Below are positions 4,931 through 61,665 of a stretch of 64,000 nucleotides of DNA, in pieces; within the stretch, counting starts at the first letter, position 1, and each line of letters begins with the position of its first letter. The translations under genes and the position numbers were made by a program. The notes beneath the pieces are model-generated. The model did not search any database. It was not told where the DNA came from and saw only the letters and a list, made by a program, of their open reading frames with translations. The stretch lies in the NCBI GenBank assembly GCA_021604765.1, contig BQJP01000003.1, positions 14,081 through 78,080 of the forward strand. The letters run 5' to 3'. This DNA comes from Thermodesulfobacteriota bacterium. GTDB taxonomy: Bacteria; Desulfobacterota_D; UBA1144; Nemesobacterales; UBA2774.

Positions 4931-5911
4931 TTAATTGAGTTTAATCTCAATAGTTTTGGGTGTTTGTTTAGTTAGTTTGAGTATGTCTTTATAAGGGTAG
5001 TTAACCCCAACTTTTAAGGTGTGTTTTTTATTTTGATTAGTCTTGTTTATATCGCTTCCATCAACATAAAGCTCTATGTCATTACTGTTAAGATTGTTTA
5101 TAATGCTAAACGGTCCTTCAAAAGCAAGTTCAGTTGCTATGTTCCCATTAGTTTCAAAATCGAATTCATCAAAATTAATATAGCTAATATTTAGGTCGTT
5201 GAATTCCTTCTCTAGGGTTTTTTCCTTGATATCAATTGTCACTTTTACGGTATTGTCTCCTAAAATATTTACGATAGAGTAGGGCGAGCGCAATGGAACT
5301 TCAATTGTAAATTTTGATTTCTCTCCCTTAACTGATACAGGATCGGTTGTAATACTATTTATTTTAGAAAGAAGGTTCTTTGGTCCTTCAATACTTGTGG
5401 TAGAAGGGCTCACTTCAGGTTTGCCTATAATTTCATATCCAACTTCAGGCGGACCAATACTAGGCTCTACCTTGACTTTCTTCTCAGCTAATTTATCTGC
5501 TTCAATTTTAATTTCAGCAGGGCTTATTCCTGTAACTTGTACATCCCTAGGTGGCGTAATTTGATCTGTGCCAATTTCAAATTTAGACATGCCGCCCGAA
5601 ATATTAGATAAATCTATTGTGAACAACATATTCTGAGCCGTAATGGAAGAGAGCTGACTTCGTGGTCCTCTTACCCTTAAATTTAGTTTCTCAGGAGGAG
5701 CATTTACTACTACAAGTCCGGGTGGCAGGTTGGCATAATTAACATCGATTGCAATATTTTTCTCTATGTCATGTTGAAGATTCGCTACCAGCCAAAGAGA
5801 TATAGCAATGACAATAGCAAGAACCTTCTTCCCAATATTGTTAAGAAGTGGGTTCTTTTGGTTCTCTTCGTTATGATCAGATTGAAATGGGTGTTTTAGC
5901 CAGTTTACCAT
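4931..5911 (-). CDS. cdaR: YbbR-domain protein (CdaR-like regulator of diadenylate cyclase)
   Basis: N-terminal TM helix followed by repeated YbbR-like beta-rich domains. Sits between cdaA and glmM as in the canonical cdaA-cdaR-glmM operon. Confidence 0.7.
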   Translation of the reverse strand: MVNWLKHPFQSDHNEENQKNPLLNNIGKKVLAIVIAISLWLVANLQHDIEKNIAIDVNYANLPPGLVVVNAPPEKLNLRVRGPRSQLSSITAQNMLFTIDLSNISGGMSKFEIGTDQITPPRDVQVTGISPAEIKIEADKLAEKKVKVEPSIGPPEVGYEIIGKPEVSPSTTSIEGPKNLLSKINSITTDPVSVKGEKSKFTIEVPLRSPYSIVNILGDNTVKVTIDIKEKTLEKEFNDLNISYINFDEFDFETNGNIATELAFEGPFSIINNLNSNDIELYVDGSDINKTNQNKKHTLKVGVNYPYKDILKLTKQTPKTIEIKLN

Positions 5912-18152: not shown

Positions 18153-18566
18153 TTATACCCGTTCTTTTACATCTGAGGTGTAAATTTGAATTATGGGAAA
18201 GGCTGCAAATGCTATCTGACCGGCGAGCCCAAGAGAGCCATTAAGTTTTAAATAGTGATTAAAATGATCATTGATAGAGTTGTCAAAAAGTAAAATTGAC
18301 AAAAAGAGTTCTGCAACCATAAGTAGAACAAATGCTGCAATTCCCATGTTAAGACGAGACTGCCAAACTCGTGGTACTGAAAATCGGATAATTAACCAGC
18401 TACATATTATCCATGATGCCATTAAAATGATTGGCATTTCAATTAGTCCACTTGTTAATTCGCCGAATTGCGGAACCAGCACCAAGACTCTAATAGTTCC
18501 TAAAACAAAACCGACAGCAAATACAATCCCAAAATAAGCTGATCCGGCTTTAAGCTCTTGTTTCAT
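18153..18566 (-). CDS. Hypothetical integral membrane protein (4 predicted TM helices)
   Basis: Hydrophobic segment pattern only. Confidence 0.45.
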   Translation of the reverse strand: MKQELKAGSAYFGIVFAVGFVLGTIRVLVLVPQFGELTSGLIEMPIILMASWIICSWLIIRFSVPRVWQSRLNMGIAAFVLLMVAELFLSILLFDNSINDHFNHYLKLNGSLGLAGQIAFAAFPIIQIYTSDVKERV

Positions 18567-18818: not shown

Positions 18819-18881
18819 AACCCCCGTCGTACTGAGTTTACAGAAGAAAGGTTATTGCAGGGGGCCGTTTCTACTCAATCC

Positions 18882-19316
18882 TTACTCATCCGGAAGACGC
18901 CTCATGGCTACGGACATCCGGTTCCACATGTTCATTACAGAAATTATAAGCGTTAGATCAACGATCTGCTGTTCTGTATAGTGCTTTTTTAGCTCCTCAA
19001 AAACAGAGTCAGGGGCGTGTGTGATGGACACATTCGTCAAAGCTTCAGCCCAGGAGAAGGCCGCGCGCTCTGCTTCGGTGAACAAATTTGACTCGTGCCA
19101 CACAGCTATTGAATCCAGCCGCTTTTGATCTTCTCCTTCTTCTCTGGCTTCTCCTAGATGAAGATGGACGCAATATACGCATCCGTTAATTTGAGAAACT
19201 CTAAGGTCAACTAACGCTTTAAGTTTTTTATCTATCGAAGATATATGCTTACTTGCGGCAGACAGCAGATTAACAGTTTTGGGGTTTACTTCCCGAAAAT
19301 CGATTCTCTGGTACAT
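18882..19316 (-). CDS. Carboxymuconolactone decarboxylase / AhpD-like family protein
   Basis: AhpD-like CxxC-H motif (QINGCVYCVHLH). Confidence 0.8.
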   Translation of the reverse strand: MYQRIDFREVNPKTVNLLSAASKHISSIDKKLKALVDLRVSQINGCVYCVHLHLGEAREEGEDQKRLDSIAVWHESNLFTEAERAAFSWAEALTNVSITHAPDSVFEELKKHYTEQQIVDLTLIISVMNMWNRMSVAMRRLPDE

Positions 19317-19484
19317 GGATTACCTCATTGAAAGAAATTTGTGAAAAAAAGTATACAGAACGGTCTTTTACAATAACAGGGGCATTTTGTCTGTTCCGCA
19401 AACAAATACGAAGGAGAGCTAGGATTGCTCCTCAAAATACCGCTATTTATTAGTTAACATAATATACCTTATCGGACATACGGT

Positions 19485-20429
19485 TTAGGCTGTGATCGGA
19501 GATATAAATCCCCGCGGTTTTATGCTCAATACCGAGCAATCTACTTTATATAAAATAGATTCCGCTGTGTTTCCTATAATAAATCCCGGTAGCCCAGTTC
19601 TGCAAACAGTACCCATGACAATAAGATCAATTTTTTCTTTCTTTGCAACTTCAGGTATTACTTCACCAGGATTTCCTTTGGGCAGATGTATTTTGTGTTT
19701 AATTTTGCTTAAGGAAAATTCTTTCAATAATTCTTCCGTCAATTTTCTATGGTGGTTTTCTGCATCTTTAATCAATTTATTAATCTCATTCTCTTTTTTC
19801 TTAAACCGGCTTCCTCTTAAAGCTTTTTCTCCAAATAGGCTCCATGCATGCACTACATGAAGTTCACTTTTCTCTAATTCGGCAATTGAGACCGCCAGTT
19901 GCATAATGTTGTTATTTAACTCATTACTGTTTTGATCGTTAGGCTCTGGATCCACTGCAGCCAGGATGCGAGAATATTTTGTAGATCCACTGGGTTTAAT
20001 CATCCACACAGGGCAAGGACACTTACGCATAATATTTATGTCAATGCTTCCAAATAGAGCCTCTTTCGTGTCACCCTTTCCTTCCGGGGTCTTCATCACC
20101 AAATCATGCTTGTTTCTTAGTACTTCTTTTATTATCTCTATATGAGGTTTCCCTACTAGGGTTTTAACCACAGGCTTAAAATCTTTGTTAGTTTCAATTG
20201 ATGAAATAAGAGTTTGTATTTCATCAGTTCTTTCCTGTGCGACTATTTCCTGAAGTTCTTCAGCCGATATAATCTCCAGATAGTCTTTTATTCTGTCAGG
20301 TAGTTCCTCAAGCACATCAACTATAGTTAATTTTGCGTTATTGCTCTTGGCCAGTCCAAAAGCTCTTCTGATAGCTTCTTCGTTTTTCTTCCCATGTAGC
20401 ACTAAAAGTATATTTTTAAATCTTATCAT
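19485..20429 (-). CDS. Tandem-domain universal stress protein (UspA/UspE-like)
   Basis: Two Usp domains, each ending in the G-x2-G-x9-G(S/T) ATP-binding-like motif (VMGTVCRTGLPGFIIGNTAES). Confidence 0.8.
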   Translation of the reverse strand: MIRFKNILLVLHGKKNEEAIRRAFGLAKSNNAKLTIVDVLEELPDRIKDYLEIISAEELQEIVAQERTDEIQTLISSIETNKDFKPVVKTLVGKPHIEIIKEVLRNKHDLVMKTPEGKGDTKEALFGSIDINIMRKCPCPVWMIKPSGSTKYSRILAAVDPEPNDQNSNELNNNIMQLAVSIAELEKSELHVVHAWSLFGEKALRGSRFKKKENEINKLIKDAENHHRKLTEELLKEFSLSKIKHKIHLPKGNPGEVIPEVAKKEKIDLIVMGTVCRTGLPGFIIGNTAESILYKVDCSVLSIKPRGFISPITA

Positions 20430-20621
20430 TAAATTTTATTCACACTCCTTTAGTTTATTTACGCTTTTTAGGGCGCCAATATAATATTGCAAGGAGTATG
20501 CCAGAGTTAGAACTCAGCATTACCAAAGCTTTTGCGTAGGAATATAATTGATACAGGTGTATGGTGTACGAATTTCTTACACACTCTAGGTTCTTAGTAC
20601 CAGAACCTATGATCTCTGGAT

Positions 20622-21698
20622 CTATGAACTTATAGGAACTCTTTTTCTAATTACATAGAGACTTATAATTCCAAAAAGTCCAATCACTAGTAGCATTGAC
20701 CATAGGTTTAATGTCGGAACAGCTGTAGTATTTATGATTTCTGCAGGTTCTATGAATGTTCCAAAAGCTATTGCACCGCCTCCATCAAGAGGCACTATAT
20801 CAAACAGACTATTATCTGAAGTTTGTATGACGGATACATTTGAAGATCCCGCATTTGCTGTATAAACAAACGCGCCGTCAGGGGTTACTGATATACCCTG
20901 CGGTCCTAAAGCTTCAACTGGCACCGTTTCTATAACCTGGTTAGTAGATGTATCTATCACAGAGACTGTGTTGTCCGTAAAGTTGGTAGCATAAAGCCTG
21001 CTGTCGTCCGGGCTCAATGCAAGGTCTTCTGTTCCTGCTCCAGTATTAATCGTATCAACAATAGAATTAGAGAAAGTGCTGATAACTGATATTGTCTCGC
21101 TTATGAAGTTTGCTACATAAACTGTCGTTCCATCCTTGCTAACGACTACCCCAAAAGGACCATCCTCTGTGTCTATTGTTTTGAACACTGTATTTGTAGT
21201 GGTGTTAACAAAGGACAAAGTAAAATCGTTTCTATTGGTCACATATAAAGTATTTCTATCAGGGCTAACAGCAACGCCAAATGGGAAATTTCCAACCTCT
21301 ATATTAGTTATAATTTCAAAAGTAGACGCATTTATTACAGAGACATTATTATCTCCAGTGTTGGCAACATAGATTAAGTTGCCATCTGGGCTCACTGCGA
21401 TCCCACGAGGCATATTGCCTATATCGATTGTAGCTACCACCTGGTTTGTCTCAGTTTTGATTACTGAAAGTGTTTCATCAAGAAAATTTGATATATATAC
21501 AAAATCGCCATTTGGGCTTATAGAAACTCCCAGTGGCCCTGCTCCTACAGTGATTGTATCCACTACGGTATTTGTAGCTGTATCTATAACATTAACCGTC
21601 CCGTTTGAGAAAGTTCCAACGTAAGCAAAGGGTTCAGCAGATACGGAATATGTGCATATAGTTATTGATATAAATAGAATAGTTCTGAGTAGTCTCAT
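20622..21698 (-). CDS. Secreted YVTN-family beta-propeller repeat protein with an IPTL-CTERM-like C-terminal sorting signal
   Basis: N-terminal signal peptide; about seven 42-aa repeats of the form xVYVANxxxNTVSVIDTxTNxVxxTI; C-terminus VPTLNLWSMLLVIGLFGIISLYVIRKR (motif, TM helix, basic cluster). Confidence 0.75.
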   Translation of the reverse strand: MRLLRTILFISITICTYSVSAEPFAYVGTFSNGTVNVIDTATNTVVDTITVGAGPLGVSISPNGDFVYISNFLDETLSVIKTETNQVVATIDIGNMPRGIAVSPDGNLIYVANTGDNNVSVINASTFEIITNIEVGNFPFGVAVSPDRNTLYVTNRNDFTLSFVNTTTNTVFKTIDTEDGPFGVVVSKDGTTVYVANFISETISVISTFSNSIVDTINTGAGTEDLALSPDDSRLYATNFTDNTVSVIDTSTNQVIETVPVEALGPQGISVTPDGAFVYTANAGSSNVSVIQTSDNSLFDIVPLDGGGAIAFGTFIEPAEIINTTAVPTLNLWSMLLVIGLFGIISLYVIRKRVPISS

Positions 21699-21832
21699 TC
21701 TCGTCCTCCTAAAATAATTGTTTATATGCTATCTAAATTGTTTTAAGAGTACAAACCATCTTAGGCTAGATGTTGGTTAAATTTGTACCCCAAAGTAAGT
21801 TCGTATATTATCAAAAGTGATATAAACGGGAG

Positions 21833-22546
21833 GTGGTTTCTATGATAAATAAAAGGTTTTGGATAATAACAATTGCAATAGTCTTCTTTTCCTTACCAGG
21901 ATATTCGGAGAATACGACTCAGAATAAATCTGCCATCGGCCACAAGATCGCCCAGGCTTACGGCATCGAGCACTTCGATGAGATCCTGGAGCTGGAATAT
22001 ACTTTCAATGCTAAAATCGGAGAAAAAACTATCAGCCGCACCTGGGTGTGGGCGCCAAAAGATAATAAAGTCACCTATATTGAAGATGACGGGACTACTG
22101 AGTTCCTAACTTATAATCGGGAAAATATTTCTGATCAATCAGATTCGATTAAGGAAGTAGACTCAAAGTTCATCAACGATCAATACTGGCTACTTTTCCC
22201 GTTTCACTTGGCTTGGGACGAAGGAATTAGAATAGAAGTTGAAGATGAGAAGATGGATTTGCCGATTGGTAGTGGTATGACTACTAAGGTCCGCGTCACA
22301 TACCCGGACACCGGAGGCTATACTCCGGGAGATGTTTACGAGCTTTATCTGGATGAAAATTATATGCTTCTCGAATGGATTTACCGCCAAGGGGGCTCTG
22401 AGACCCCTACCCGCATATCAACCTGGCAGGATAACACTCAGTTCGGCCCTATTACAATATCCTTAAATCATCTTGGTCCGGATGAAAATTTCAGAGTATG
22501 GTTCACCAATGTCGGGGTAAAACATATAAACACTAAGGAGCAGTAA
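21833..22546 (+). CDS. Secreted hypothetical protein; GC-richer than surrounding genes
   Basis: Signal peptide (MINKRFWIITIAIVFFSLPGYS; probable start at 21842). No recognisable domain. GC content clearly elevated after the signal-peptide codons. Confidence 0.5.
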   Translation: MVSMINKRFWIITIAIVFFSLPGYSENTTQNKSAIGHKIAQAYGIEHFDEILELEYTFNAKIGEKTISRTWVWAPKDNKVTYIEDDGTTEFLTYNRENISDQSDSIKEVDSKFINDQYWLLFPFHLAWDEGIRIEVEDEKMDLPIGSGMTTKVRVTYPDTGGYTPGDVYELYLDENYMLLEWIYRQGGSETPTRISTWQDNTQFGPITISLNHLGPDENFRVWFTNVGVKHINTKEQ

Positions 22547-26908: not shown

Positions 26909-28651
26909 TTATCTCTCTTCTAAGTCACTCAAGTATCTATGAACACTGTTTATCGCCATGCCGCCCTCTCCTACTGCTGAAGTAACTCTTTTTACAGAGT
27001 TGGCTCGTACATCTCCAACAGCAAATATGCCCGGCACGCTTGTTTCAAGCATCATTGGAGGCCTGGTTTCTAAAGGCCAGTTTTTATTATTTACAACATC
27101 ACTCCCTGTGCACACAAAGCCGTTCTCATCCATTCCAACTTCCGTTTCCTTAAGCCACCCGGTGTTTGGTACAGCGCCAATCATAAGAAACACATACTGC
27201 ACATCAAGCTCTCTGGTCTCTCCGCTCTCTCTGTTCTTCCAAACAACCTGTTTTAATCTGTTATCGCCCCTAAGCTCAATAATCTCTGTGCGGGTATGCA
27301 AAGTTATAAAACCAGAAGAATTTATCCTCTCTATCAAATAATCAGACATGCTCGCGGCCAGGCCTCCGCTTCTGACGAGTATGTGTACATGGCTTGCGTA
27401 TTTAGACAAAAACACTGCCGCTTGGCCCGCTGAATTGCCCCCGCCAACGATAATTACTTCCTCATCTTCACAGAGGCTCGCCTCCATTGCTGTGGCTGCA
27501 TAGTAAAGCCCCGCGTTCTCAAAATTCTTTTCTTCTTCAAGTCCGAGATTTCTATAACGAGCGCCCGACGCGATTACTACCGCTCTTGACGTTATCGTTT
27601 CTCCGCTTTCAATATCGAGGGTGAACTGATTGCTGTTTGATGTGATTTTTTCAACTGCTCTGGGCAAGGCTATTTTGGTGCCGAATTTTTGAGCCTGTAT
27701 TTGCGCTCTGCCCGCAAGTGCTTGTCCTGATATCCCTGTCGGAAAACCCAGGTAATTTTCAATTTTTGAGCTTGTGCCCGCCTGCCCGCCTGGGGCTTCT
27801 GTTTCGAGGACTATGGTTCTGAGCCCTTCAGAAGCCGCGTTTAGAGCTGCGGAGAGACCTCCTGGGCCTGCCCCAACCACAGCAACATCGTATGGATATT
27901 GTTGGTCAATCTCCTCAAACAATCCCAGATGCTCAGCGACTTCAAGTGTCGTTGGTTTTTTGAGTACTATTTTTTCGTTATACAATAGTACAGCTGGAAG
28001 GTCATCTCCAGCTACTGTGCAAGTGTTAAGAATTCTTTTGCATTCTTCGCTTTCAAGGTCACTAAGCAATATGACCGGATATCCGTTACGCCTTAAAAAG
28101 CGCTCAATCCTTATGGTTTCTCTCGAATCCCGTGACCCTATAAGAGTTACCGACCCCTGCTCGTGCGAGATTAACCCTACGCGGCGCAAGATAAATGCGC
28201 GCATCACTATTTCACCAATATCAGGCTCTGCTGTTATCAGTTTTCTGAAATTTATCCGGTTAACACGAACCACGTCTCCTTCTTCTCCCATCCTTCCTCC
28301 CACAAGGATCTTCCTGTCGTTGAAGAGATCTACTTCTCCCGTAAATTGTTTCTCTGAGTGAACTGTAAGTACTTTTATACCTTCCTGACGATGTTCATAA
28401 ATCTCAATATTGCCACTAAGAACCACAAAAAAATCTACGGTTTTCTCTCCCCTCTCAAACACTACCGTTCCTTGGTCGAGCTTCTCGGTCACTCCGAAGA
28501 ATTTAACCCGTTCAATTTGTTCATCGCTCAAAGTTGGAAAAGTCTGACTCAACCGGGCATACGGGTCACTTGGGTCAAGTGTATTGCTGTCTGGAATAAG
28601 GTCTTTTGTCACTAAACTGCTCCTTAATTTTATATAAAGAAAGTTTAGCAT
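26909..28651 (-). CDS. Cyclic-nucleotide-binding-domain protein fused to a thioredoxin-reductase-like FAD/NAD(P) flavoprotein that lacks the redox-active CxxC
   Basis: N-terminal cNMP-binding beta-roll (FFGVTEKLDQGTVVFERGEKTVDFFVVLSGNIEIY, FTGEVDLF). The C-terminal TrxR fold has two dinucleotide motifs (VAVVGAGPGG, VIIVGGGNSAG). The position aligned to TrxB's CATC reads AATAMEASLC, so both active-site Cys are absent. Confidence 0.8.
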   Translation of the reverse strand: MLNFLYIKLRSSLVTKDLIPDSNTLDPSDPYARLSQTFPTLSDEQIERVKFFGVTEKLDQGTVVFERGEKTVDFFVVLSGNIEIYEHRQEGIKVLTVHSEKQFTGEVDLFNDRKILVGGRMGEEGDVVRVNRINFRKLITAEPDIGEIVMRAFILRRVGLISHEQGSVTLIGSRDSRETIRIERFLRRNGYPVILLSDLESEECKRILNTCTVAGDDLPAVLLYNEKIVLKKPTTLEVAEHLGLFEEIDQQYPYDVAVVGAGPGGLSAALNAASEGLRTIVLETEAPGGQAGTSSKIENYLGFPTGISGQALAGRAQIQAQKFGTKIALPRAVEKITSNSNQFTLDIESGETITSRAVVIASGARYRNLGLEEEKNFENAGLYYAATAMEASLCEDEEVIIVGGGNSAGQAAVFLSKYASHVHILVRSGGLAASMSDYLIERINSSGFITLHTRTEIIELRGDNRLKQVVWKNRESGETRELDVQYVFLMIGAVPNTGWLKETEVGMDENGFVCTGSDVVNNKNWPLETRPPMMLETSVPGIFAVGDVRANSVKRVTSAVGEGGMAINSVHRYLSDLEER

Positions 28652-48731: not shown

Positions 48732-49823
48732 ATGTTTCCCCCCAAATTTTTACTAATCACTTTCCTTAGTCTTTTTCTTTTCACTTCTAAAACTATTATG
48801 GCTTCGGTCAATAATCTTACGGTTCCAGAAGGATTTCAAATAGATGAGTATGCAACAGAATTGGGAAGCCCAAGGTTTATGGCGCTTAGTCCTGACAATA
48901 TTCTTTTTGTTACTGTTATCGGGGACGGAACTGTTGTAGCCCTGCCTGATAGAAATATGGATGGTAAGTCAGAAGAAGCGATCACCTTTATTAAGGGGCT
49001 AAAACGTCCTCACGGGATAGCTTTTCATGATGGGTATATATATGTTGGGGAAACTAACCAGATAGTTAGATATAAGTATAATGGCTTTGAAAAGGAACAT
49101 GGAGAGAAAGAGATAATTGTTTCGGATCTTCCAACCAAGGGGCATTTTACAAGGACTGTATCCTTTGGACCTGATGGAAAGATGTACGTTTCAATCGGTT
49201 CTTCCTGTAATGTCTGTATTGAAAAAGATAAACGACGTGCAACTATTATGCGGTTTAATCCAGACGGTACAGGTGGTGAGATCTTTGCAACAGGGCTTAG
49301 AAACTCAGTAGGACTTACATGGAATTCCACAACTAAAGATTTATGGGCTACTGATAATGGTAGAGATTGGTTGGGAGATAATCTGCCTCCCGATGAAGTA
49401 AATATAATCAAAGAAAATAAAGATTATGGCTGGCCCTATTGTTATGGTGATAAAATCCCTGACCCCGAATTTGGTAACCTGGAGCGATGTAAAAATACTA
49501 TTGCCCCAATTGTAGAACTACAAGCCCACTCAGCCCCTTTAGGATTAACATTTTATGAGGGTAAAATGTTCCCTCCAGACTATCAGGATGATCTCTTTGT
49601 GGCTTTTCATGGTTCATGGAATCGCACAATACCAACCGGTTATAAAGTAGTTAGAGTTAAGATGAAAGATGGAGAACCTCAGGGGGTGGAAGATTTTGCT
49701 TCCGGATGGATGACTGTAACAAAGAAGTCTGGAAGGCCTGTTGATGTCTTGGTCGGCAAAAAAGGTGAGCTGTATATATCGGATGACTTAGGTGGAATAA
49801 TTTATAGAATTACATCCCAATAG
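48732..49823 (+). CDS. Secreted PQQ-dependent sugar/sorbosone dehydrogenase (sGDH beta-propeller family)
   Basis: Signal peptide; sGDH-family motifs (HGIAFHDGYIYVGE, GLRNSVGLTWN, DNGRDWLGDNLPPDE). Confidence 0.75.
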   Translation: MFPPKFLLITFLSLFLFTSKTIMASVNNLTVPEGFQIDEYATELGSPRFMALSPDNILFVTVIGDGTVVALPDRNMDGKSEEAITFIKGLKRPHGIAFHDGYIYVGETNQIVRYKYNGFEKEHGEKEIIVSDLPTKGHFTRTVSFGPDGKMYVSIGSSCNVCIEKDKRRATIMRFNPDGTGGEIFATGLRNSVGLTWNSTTKDLWATDNGRDWLGDNLPPDEVNIIKENKDYGWPYCYGDKIPDPEFGNLERCKNTIAPIVELQAHSAPLGLTFYEGKMFPPDYQDDLFVAFHGSWNRTIPTGYKVVRVKMKDGEPQGVEDFASGWMTVTKKSGRPVDVLVGKKGELYISDDLGGIIYRITSQ

Positions 49824-49989: not shown

Positions 49990-50535
49990 TTAAGCCTCGG
50001 GTATGCCTTTCTTTTTCTGATTAAAAAGATAATATAGAATCAACACAATTGTTATAGCAATTAAGATAAATTTTACCAGAGCAGCACTAGATGCCACGAA
50101 TATTAAAACAGCACTGAGGCTCTCGGTATTTTGTAGCTGAAATAGGAATAGGGTATTCTCGATAATATCAAGCACACCTGCAATAATAGGAATAGAAAAC
50201 AGGGTTAAAGCTCTATCGTGATCAATCCCTCTTAGTAATGAACCCAGTAAATTGCTTAGAAAGCCTATATAAGAGAATATGAAGAGGTAATCCACCCATA
50301 ACATAATCAAGTGTGAGCGTATTCCGTCCTCTCCGCATTGATTAATTATCTGATTCAAGCCCGATTTAGTAAATACAAGCTCAAGAGATATCATATCAGG
50401 GCAACTCGGTGGTCTTAACTGTGCGTCTAAAATCACCATAACCAAGGCATTAAGAACAAAAAACATACCAGTGAAGATTAAGTATTGTTTTACCGCCAGC
50501 AGTTGGAATAGAAAATCTATGATTTTTTTATACAT
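49990..50535 (-). CDS. Hypothetical integral membrane protein
   Basis: Five hydrophobic segments; no motif. Confidence 0.4.
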   Translation of the reverse strand: MYKKIIDFLFQLLAVKQYLIFTGMFFVLNALVMVILDAQLRPPSCPDMISLELVFTKSGLNQIINQCGEDGIRSHLIMLWVDYLFIFSYIGFLSNLLGSLLRGIDHDRALTLFSIPIIAGVLDIIENTLFLFQLQNTESLSAVLIFVASSAALVKFILIAITIVLILYYLFNQKKKGIPEA

Positions 50536-60606: not shown

Positions 60607-61665
60607 ATGAAAAAAAATACACCATTTGTCAGAAACTTAGATGCGTTCTTCCATCTTGAGGTATTTATAGTTTGCGCTGTGGTCTCTATTCTTATAATCC
60701 GTCTTTTCTTGTACATGACTGGTTATCCTCAATTAGGCAATAGCACCCTTCACATAGCTCATATGCTATGGGGTGGTCTACTTATGCTTGTAGCGATAAT
60801 CATGCTCTTTTCCTTCATAGGAAAGCAAGTTGAGATTTGGGCTGCAATTCTAGGGGGAATAGGGTTTGGAATGTTTATTGATGAAGTGGGCAAGTTTGTA
60901 ACAAGTGATAACGACTACTTCTTTGAACCGTCAATTTCAATAATGTATATCGTATTTGTCCTGATAATACTCTCAACTCGCACGATAAGGACTGGGTGGA
61001 CATTTAGCCGAAAAGAATATCTAGTAAATGCCTTGAAGGGGCTAGAGGAAGTTGCGCTTCAGGATCTTGATCAGGACGAGAAAGACAGGGTCATTAAATA
61101 CTTAGAAAAGAGTGACCCGGATAATACCCTTGTTCAATCTGTTAGGGAGCTTGTAAGTAGTTCAAAACTAGTGCCTGACTCAGAAGGTTTGTATAGCAGA
61201 TTAAAAACGGGACTGAAAAACTTTTATTCAAAAGTTGTAAACTACAAATATTTTCGATCAGCTATAGTGATTTTCTTTGTTGGTCAATTACTTTTCACGT
61301 TAGCTTATATCATTGTCTTTACATTTTTTATAGGGCTTGGCTGGGATAGTATTTTAAATATTAGAATCTTAGATAAGATTGCGGAAAAAACTCTTAATCT
61401 GACTTTTATAGATAAAGCTCAGATCTTCTCTTCCCTACTTTCGGGGGTGTTTGTCTTTCTGGGAGTGTATTATCTCCGTAAATCCAGGCTTCTTTCGTAT
61501 CAGATGTTTGAGCGATCTGTTTTAGTCTCAATACTTCTCACTTACGTTTTTATTTTTTATAAAGAACAGTTTGCCGCTTTAGCAGGTCTTAGCGTAAACA
61601 TATTAATATTGATAGCTCTGAATCTAATGATTAAAAATGAAGAAACTAAACCAAGTTCAGCTTAA
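60607..61665 (+). CDS. Hypothetical polytopic membrane protein
   Basis: Multiple hydrophobic helices with a central soluble loop; no motif recognised. Confidence 0.4.
   Translation: MKKNTPFVRNLDAFFHLEVFIVCAVVSILIIRLFLYMTGYPQLGNSTLHIAHMLWGGLLMLVAIIMLFSFIGKQVEIWAAILGGIGFGMFIDEVGKFVTSDNDYFFEPSISIMYIVFVLIILSTRTIRTGWTFSRKEYLVNALKGLEEVALQDLDQDEKDRVIKYLEKSDPDNTLVQSVRELVSSSKLVPDSEGLYSRLKTGLKNFYSKVVNYKYFRSAIVIFFVGQLLFTLAYIIVFTFFIGLGWDSILNIRILDKIAEKTLNLTFIDKAQIFSSLLSGVFVFLGVYYLRKSRLLSYQMFERSVLVSILLTYVFIFYKEQFAALAGLSVNILILIALNLMIKNEETKPSSA

Follow-up and report, generated by a model that had tools for sequence, protein, structure and literature searches.

A YVTN beta-propeller protein with an IPTL-CTERM-like C-terminal tail in a marine Dadabacteria-related bacterium

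The stretch of DNA analysed here (the window, 64 kb in length) belongs to DHS20C13, the metagenome-assembled genome of a marine, Dadabacteria-related bacterium, which is diderm since markers of such an envelope, MlaE and an MlaD/PqiB-like protein, are encoded in the window itself. IleS, USP, Lpd, the MATE transporter and other proteins encoded in the window are identical to deposited proteins of that genome (GJM15210-GJM15248), and its relatives bear the name Candidatus Dadabacteria. The minus strand of the window carries a gene for a 358-residue YVTN beta-propeller protein with a predicted signal peptide, whose C-terminal end reads ...AVPTLNLWSMLLVIGLFGIISLYVIRKRVPISS. An earlier, sequence-only reading of the window saw in this end a sorting signal, consisting of a short motif, a hydrophobic helix and a basic cluster, and placed it close to the IPTL-CTERM class. 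The gene and its parts, all on the minus strand, are as follows.

20622..21698, minus strand: YVTN beta-propeller gene, 358 residues plus stop; predicted export, tripartite C-terminal tail
21705..21710, minus strand: Shine-Dalgarno sequence AGGAGG, perfect, 6 nt 5' of the ATG at 21698; read from the sequence
21636..21698, minus strand: predicted Sec signal peptide, residues 1-21 (MRLLR, hydrophobic core and SVSA, then EP); heuristic call
20751..21635, minus strand: seven-bladed YVTN propeller, residues 22-316; from AlphaFold2 and Foldseek
20724..20750, minus strand: linker EPAEIINTT, residues 317-325 (9 residues); unstructured in the AlphaFold2 model, 60-90% identical among orthologues
20700..20723, minus strand: signature motif AVPTLNLW, residues 326-333; IPTLxxW-like, aligns to positions 1-12 of the IPTL-CTERM model TIGR04174
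20649..20699, minus strand: hydrophobic transmembrane (TM) segment, residues 334-350 (17 residues), SMLLVIGLFGIISLYVI; inside the AlphaFold2 helix 332-351
20625..20648, minus strand: basic cluster RKR, residues 351-353, then the C-terminal VPISS; from the sequence

The protein is a YVTN repeat protein, as the first reading had it: in an NCBIfam scan TIGR02276 (YVTN repeat) matches it in seven stretches with 209.6 bits against a cutoff of 27.85, and two orthologues, from the related loci L005 and L007, score 209.9 and 212.2 bits. The Pfam families Lactonase and YNCE, which are related propellers, match as well. The AlphaFold2 model, built from 55 homologues (pLDDT 90.8, pTM 0.85), has 27 long strands and short closing fragments, which we read as seven blades (residues 24-316), so that the modelled fold is a closed seven-bladed propeller; after it come the unstructured linker and a lone terminal helix at 332-351. 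Foldseek against the PDB placed 1l0q_A well ahead of the rest (42% identity, root-mean-square deviation 1.5 A, E 6e-30). At the other end of the protein a heuristic reading of the sequence gives the look of a type I signal peptide, whose core coincides with a modelled helix at residues 2-13 and whose A-x-A-type cleavage site is kept in both orthologues. A lipoprotein reading was rejected: the sole cysteine, C15, lies outside any lipobox, with Ile at -1, and position 15 is Phe in L005.

The tail has the layout first described for it. Motif (326-333), helix (332-351) and RKR (351-353) follow one another at the extreme C-terminus, which ends at residue 358. The motif, VPTLNLWS, keeps the P, T, L and W of IPTLxxWG; Ile is replaced conservatively by Val, and the Gly after Trp by Ser or Ala in the three orthologues. 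From the residue frequencies of the window, [IV]PTLxxW has a chance of about 3e-7 per position, giving 0.006 expected occurrences in the approximately 19,000 residues of the window's open reading frames (ORFs), where one is observed, at the start of the sole C-terminal helix; the approximately 190,000 residues of fetched proteins contain one occurrence, in the genuine IPTL-CTERM tail of the YVTN protein P0076. The motif and its placement together are thus unlikely to be due to chance. Haft's list of attributes for tripartite sorting signals has eight entries (10.1101/2023.06.07.544157). Six of them are seen here, among them C-terminal location, TM segment, basic cluster, N-terminal signal peptide and the existence of homologues that have another signal or none; the other two, several occurrences per genome and unrelated carriers, are properties of the genome as a whole.

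Orthologues were reached through synteny, relatives' contigs being fetched by way of the MATE gene, and then through a DNA-level metagenome scan. The L005 orthologue (L005:12413-13489) occupies the same syntenic place, has 358 residues and 91% identity, and ends in AVPTLNLWAMLVMIGLLGMISFYVIRKRVPIGS; the third copy, L007, found in the DNA-level scan, is about 90% identical and ends in AVPTLNTWAMLLMIGFLGIVSFYVIRKRVPINS. The protein-level homology search returned no orthologue, giving repeat-driven matches only (best 48% identity) and missing the 91% orthologue, and a scan of GTDB genomes returned relatives at 26-31% identity only. A word-indexed search with the tail alone found no protein sharing three 5-mers with it, and when 1.84 billion representatives were searched exhaustively with the tail no real match emerged: the single hit, P0275, was rejected as a sum of weak 'AQPTVTGW' matches over 53-residue tandem repeats. 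P0275 is itself a curiosity, a 1910-residue database 'protein' made of 53-residue repeats (...AAATGTTIAQPTVTGWTRLLLLGLPLLNPRWQAGQGCCYWDYHCSTH...) and most likely the translation of tandemly repeated DNA. No protein-level search or exact look-up brought up the YVTN protein or the L005 orthologue, although GJM15210 and GJM15215, encoded on the same contig near the YVTN gene, are deposited proteins, and the L005 gene has no Pfam match on record though it encodes an obvious YVTN propeller.

Absence of the pattern from orthologues had been named at the outset as evidence against a sorting signal; the pattern is present in L005 and L007. In the three pairwise comparisons identity is 90-94% in the propeller, 88-100% in the motif and 89% in the basic end, and 62-75% in the TM core, where 25-38% of positions change and all replacements are hydrophobic. 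YVIRKRVPI is the same in all three copies; AVPTLNLW is unchanged in L005 and differs in L007 only at an 'x' site (L to T), and there are synonymous changes within the motif codons. A motif and basic end that stay fixed while the TM core drifts are what would be expected of a motif/TM/basic signal, a pattern that we regard as suggestive, because it comes from three sequences at about 90% identity.

To place the tail in a class, we compared it with sorting-signal models, beginning with TIGR04174 (IPTL-CTERM; Pfam PF18203), which has a curated cutoff of 20.5 bits. The scores are these.

Window copy: tail alone 12.6-13.7 bits (E 0.057 at 13.7), model positions 1-12 only; whole protein not listed
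L005: tail alone 22.0 bits, model positions 1-27 of 27; whole protein 16.0
L007: tail alone 21.6 bits, model positions 1-27 of 27; whole protein 15.7
P0076, positive control: tail alone 52.6 bits
P0045, positive control: tail alone 33.1 bits

The search with this model that the sequence-only reading had proposed thus gave a divided answer, the window copy falling below the cutoff and the tails of L005 and L007 rising above it when taken alone, with the whole proteins below. The claim of a close match to IPTL-CTERM holds insofar as this is the closest class and TIGR04174 is the sole sorting-signal model to align to the motif itself; it was too strong for a window copy that reaches 13.7 of the 20.5 bits, is not listed as a whole protein and has lost the Gly. 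That the likeness is accidental, a hydrophobic tail merely happening to start with VPTLxxW and having no function, is what one might think of the window copy by itself, weak as it is at 13.7 bits and E 0.057; with so small a number of occurrences expected in the window proteome, a tail kept in two orthologues through synonymous codon changes, and orthologue tails that align over the full length of the model, we consider this very improbable.

NF033207, a family that NCBIfam names 'midcut-by-XrtH', contains an IPTL-like signal segment at positions 32-64. All five [IV]PTL tails (the three orthologues and the positive controls P0076 and P0045) match this segment, at 18.7-28.9 bits, and none of ten TM-plus-basic tails that lack the motif, taken from further YVTN proteins, does. 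Full membership of NF033207 does not follow, the scores of 19.4-25.3 bits standing against a cutoff of 45 and covering positions 32-64 only, with the signal C-terminal. The class signatures of PEP-CTERM, PGF-CTERM, GlyGly-CTERM, MYXO-CTERM, LPXTG, Loki-CTERM and VPXXXP-CTERM are not matched by the tails. Loki-CTERM and VPXXXP models match the TM region below their cutoffs (12.7-17.3 against 19.9 bits, and 14-18 against 30), and the nominal passing score of LPXTG_anchor on the L007 tail, 16.0 against 15.9, comes from model positions 10-32 only, in a tail with no LPXTG motif. Of 120 YVTN homologues the majority lack a tail; anchors of LPXTG type (P0091, 26.1 bits), MYXO-like or unclassified are found in others, and two have tails of IPTL type: P0076 and P0045, with the scores given above, bear genuine IPTL-CTERM signals on YVTN propellers elsewhere.

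The motif-specific evidence therefore points to the IPTL/XrtH class, for a tail that is designed like a member's and that the curated rule calls a non-member. The window tail is rich in Ile, Phe, Met and Lys, those of the controls in Leu, Ala and Arg; TIGR04174 appears to have been trained largely on high-GC, Leu/Ala/Arg-rich proteobacterial sequences (GC, guanine plus cytosine), and the low scores are likely to come from composition and from loss of the Gly after Trp.

On balance, and with moderate confidence, we favour the reading that the tail is a diverged, low-GC-flavoured IPTL-CTERM signal, cleaved by an XrtH-type exosortase encoded elsewhere, which sends the propeller to the surface. 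The YVTN protein would be exported by Sec, would lose its signal peptide, and would be held for a time in the inner membrane by its C-terminal helix, RKR facing the cytoplasm, steps that take their support from features of the sequence and the model. An XrtH-type exosortase (a cysteine endopeptidase) from elsewhere in the genome would then cleave at or near VPTL, removing the helix, and the propeller might be anchored or displayed at the cell surface; these last two steps are drawn by analogy with ArtA/PGF-CTERM, XrtA/PEP-CTERM and a Methylomirabilis S-layer protein.

Two sets of observations weigh against this reading, the first of which concerns the tail and its gene. The curated whole-protein rule excludes all three proteins from TIGR04174; one motif-less decoy got 14.4 bits from that model with nothing but its TM part, which keeps the 13.7 bits of the window copy from being decisive by themselves; the Gly of IPTLxxWG is missing; and the orthologues are only three, at about 90% identity, in which the motif, were it to change as fast as the TM core, should show some 2-3 changes and shows 0-1. 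No second tail of this type occurs among the other ORFs of the window, and there is one per locus in the window and the related loci alike. The gene, moreover, lies in a flexible island (described below) and may have arrived without its enzyme. Much of this would fit a plain bitopic anchor, an uncleaved C-terminal helix by which the propeller stays tethered to the inner membrane on its periplasmic side, with VPTLxxW a relic or an interfacial Pro/Trp cap: the whole-protein scores are sub-threshold, a generic TM tail can score as high as that decoy, many YVTN homologues end in TM-plus-basic tails with no recognised motif, tails are single and enzymes absent nearby, an island gene could be acquired without a cognate enzyme, and a linker of nine residues still permits a membrane-tethered propeller to function. 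What a simple anchor accounts for poorly is an exact five-residue signature in the right position, very improbable by chance, the fixity of motif and basic end beside a helix core that changes at a quarter or more of its positions, and the specificity of the midcut-by-XrtH segment for the motif tails over the decoys. We regard such an anchor as possible, and as the less probable explanation.

The second set concerns the enzyme. All ORFs of the window for which TM segments are predicted were compared with protein families, and none matched the exosortase, archaeosortase, rhombosortase or CPBP families, which bears out the original statement that the window encodes no sorting enzyme; the membrane proteins identified were CdaA, CdsA, MATE, FtsH, PBP1A, MlaE and the MlaD/PqiB-like protein. 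Nor is there an exosortase among the called genes within 10 kb of the L005 orthologue. Literature searches yielded no link of Dadabacteria to any sortase type and, on IPTL-CTERM and XrtH, one pertinent paper, that on the Methylomirabilis S-layer; an apparent match to 'exosortase H' was in fact to 'exosortase homologue', and we know of no biochemical proof for the XrtH pairing or for any XrtH substrate. Such systems usually have one enzyme for many substrates and do not need linkage. The lack of a nearby enzyme is accordingly uninformative. A search with an IPTL tail led to a comparable case on an Acidovorax plasmid, where no exosortase lies less than 20 kb from a gene annotated as IPTL-CTERM. 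A tblastn search of P0076 against plasmids gave propeller matches only, with no 'exosortase H' annotated beside an IPTL-CTERM gene.

Four membrane ORFs of the window had no family match at the thresholds used: 60607..61665, 49990..50535, 18153..18566 and 4931..5911, the last of 326 residues with a single TM segment and with the NCBIfam scan as its only search. The first three, at 60607-61665 (+), 49990-50535 (-) and 18153-18566 (-), are conserved multi-pass membrane proteins of 352, 181 and 137 residues without NCBIfam or Pfam assignment. The 352-residue protein comprises an N-terminal bundle of three TM segments, a soluble domain of about 100 residues and C-terminal TM segments. As a sortase, 60607..61665 was rejected: it has no family match and a single Cys, and its layout of three TM segments, soluble domain and TM is unlike that of exosortases.

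The original statement that the processing enzyme of the IPTL class is not established holds for experiment; computationally, the NCBIfam name 'midcut-by-XrtH' pairs the signal with XrtH. TIGR04177 presumably bears the title 'exosortase H, IPTLxxWG-CTERM-specific'. Curated resources do pair IPTL-type signals with exosortase H, and the pairing is a computational one. A genuine signal might instead be served by some other enzyme (another exosortase subfamily, a rhombosortase, a CPBP-type protease or one not yet recognised) and define a lineage-specific class that resembles IPTL-CTERM. Its divergence from TIGR04174 (WS or WA in place of WG, an Ile/Phe/Lys-rich helix, sub-threshold scores) and the lack of close sequence relatives in the 5-mer search and among the 1.84 billion representatives are compatible with this, and there are precedents: by Haft's account, some signals could not be paired with an exosortase or archaeosortase, and for the MYXO-, JDVT-, Synerg- and CGP-CTERM orphans the partners identified later are intramembrane proteases of glutamic type, related to Rce1 (10.1101/2023.06.07.544157). 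The XrtH class is, though, the simplest reading of the motif together with the midcut-by-XrtH match; the tail has neither a Cys nor a Gly-Gly feature such as other classes have, and no candidate enzyme of any kind is found nearby. We judge another enzyme to be quite unlikely. Slightly less so, though still unlikely, is a functional signal in marine, streamlined Dadabacteria without exosortase H, or without exosortases altogether, an orphan with one substrate and an unrecognised enzyme.

The YVTN gene and the universal stress protein (USP) gene beside it lie in a small flexible island that is missing from two close relatives. Its bounds and contents, with the USP gene, are listed here.

19485..20429, minus strand: tandem USP gene, GJM15210.1; Pfam Usp 142.6 bits in 2 stretches; next downstream of the YVTN gene
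Window 18850-21830, L004:13714-13865, L005:11564-16712, L006:11455-12124: island bounds, between the gene for a secreted protein of 233-238 residues and the tautomerase gene
Window island: YVTN, tandem USP and a CMD-family gene
L005 island: YVTN, USP and a KefB-like Na/H exchanger (661 residues)
L007 island: YVTN and USP, on a short contig
L004: none of the island genes; a 150-bp spacer
L006: a still larger stretch missing

In each of the three genomes with a YVTN gene (window, L005 and L007) the USP gene is found with it; the minus strand between the pair showed no terminator-like site. Of the related Logan sequences, DRR453247_1338 has the YVTN gene, and DRR453246_2745 and DRR227406_8317 are without it. 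The GC fraction of the YVTN gene is 0.388, that of the window 0.389. It is plausible that the island supplies a strain-variable envelope or surface component.

Other genes of the region merit brief mention. Divergent from the YVTN gene, at 21833-22546 (+), is that for a 237-residue protein with a signal-like N-terminus and no Pfam or NCBIfam match; it is kept alike in L004, which has no YVTN gene, and in L005, which has one, and since it is conserved with or without the YVTN gene it is not functionally tied to it. In L005, isochorismatase and TetR genes lie beyond the MATE gene, on its other side, as a local rearrangement. The 580-residue ORF at 26909-28651 (-) has relatives of 568-569 residues in L004-L006 that, by their recorded Pfam matches, fuse a cNMP-binding domain to a pyridine-nucleotide disulfide oxidoreductase; the fusion is conserved beside the MATE region. 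At 48732-49823 (+) is a 363-residue protein with a signal-like N-terminus. Its matches to PQQ-dependent glucose/sorbosone dehydrogenases and the PVC-type haem-binding CxxCH N-terminal domain (the latter 77.5 against 122.2 bits) are sub-threshold; perhaps this is another propeller-like protein of the periplasm.

The tail looks like an ordinary, diverged addition to an established class of signals, carried on a familiar passenger fold by a bacterium of a little-studied lineage. Signal class, propeller family and the joining of the two were known before, and the finding opens no new mechanism. If the favoured reading is right, IPTL-type sorting extends to uncultured marine Dadabacteria-related Thermodesulfobacteriota, and a strain-variable surface protein is flagged in that lineage. 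It also means that TIGR04174 under-scores low-GC versions of the signal, so that such substrates go unnamed in automatic annotation. Were the signal served by an unrecognised enzyme, the carriers of the island (window, L005, L007) and the non-carriers (L004, L006) would form a natural presence/absence panel for phylogenetic profiling.

Among known systems the nearest are the IPTL-CTERM proteins of TIGR04174/PF18203, a class defined in Beta- and Gammaproteobacteria. The window protein shares with them the extreme C-terminal position, the tripartite design, the [IV]-P-T-L-x-x-W core and the N-terminal signal peptide, as well as the fusion to YVTN propellers found in P0076 and P0045. It differs in that the whole proteins of the window and its orthologues score under the curated cutoff, in having Ser or Ala where Gly follows the Trp, in an Ile/Phe/Met-rich helix with RKR rather than a Leu/Ala-rich one with a run of Arg, and in its low-GC, marine, Dadabacteria-like host. 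The midcut-by-XrtH family NF033207 has an internal XrtH-type signal to which the tails of the window protein and its orthologues align; that signal lies in mid-protein whereas ours is C-terminal, and beyond the signal the proteins are unrelated.

The PGF-CTERM/ArtA and PEP-CTERM/XrtA systems have genetic or biochemical support. The likeness to them is one of tripartite logic, with, by Haft's account, presumed removal of the helix by a polytopic Cys/Arg/His enzyme and re-anchoring (10.1101/2023.06.07.544157); their signature motifs are different, and no PGF or PEP model matches the window tail. Methylomirabilis lanthanidiphila is another diderm outside the Proteobacteria, whose S-layer protein mela_00855 is described as having a signal peptide and a predicted IPTL-CTERM and as localised to the surface layer by experiment (PMC8671808); its passenger domain is unrelated to the YVTN propeller. 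For the propeller itself the counterpart is 1L0Q, the surface-layer YVTN propeller of Methanosarcina mazei, likewise seven-bladed, 42% identical with a deviation of 1.5 A over 303 columns, and likewise from a cell-surface protein. There the archaeal protein runs on into PKD domains, whereas the window propeller passes through a short linker into a sorting-type tail.

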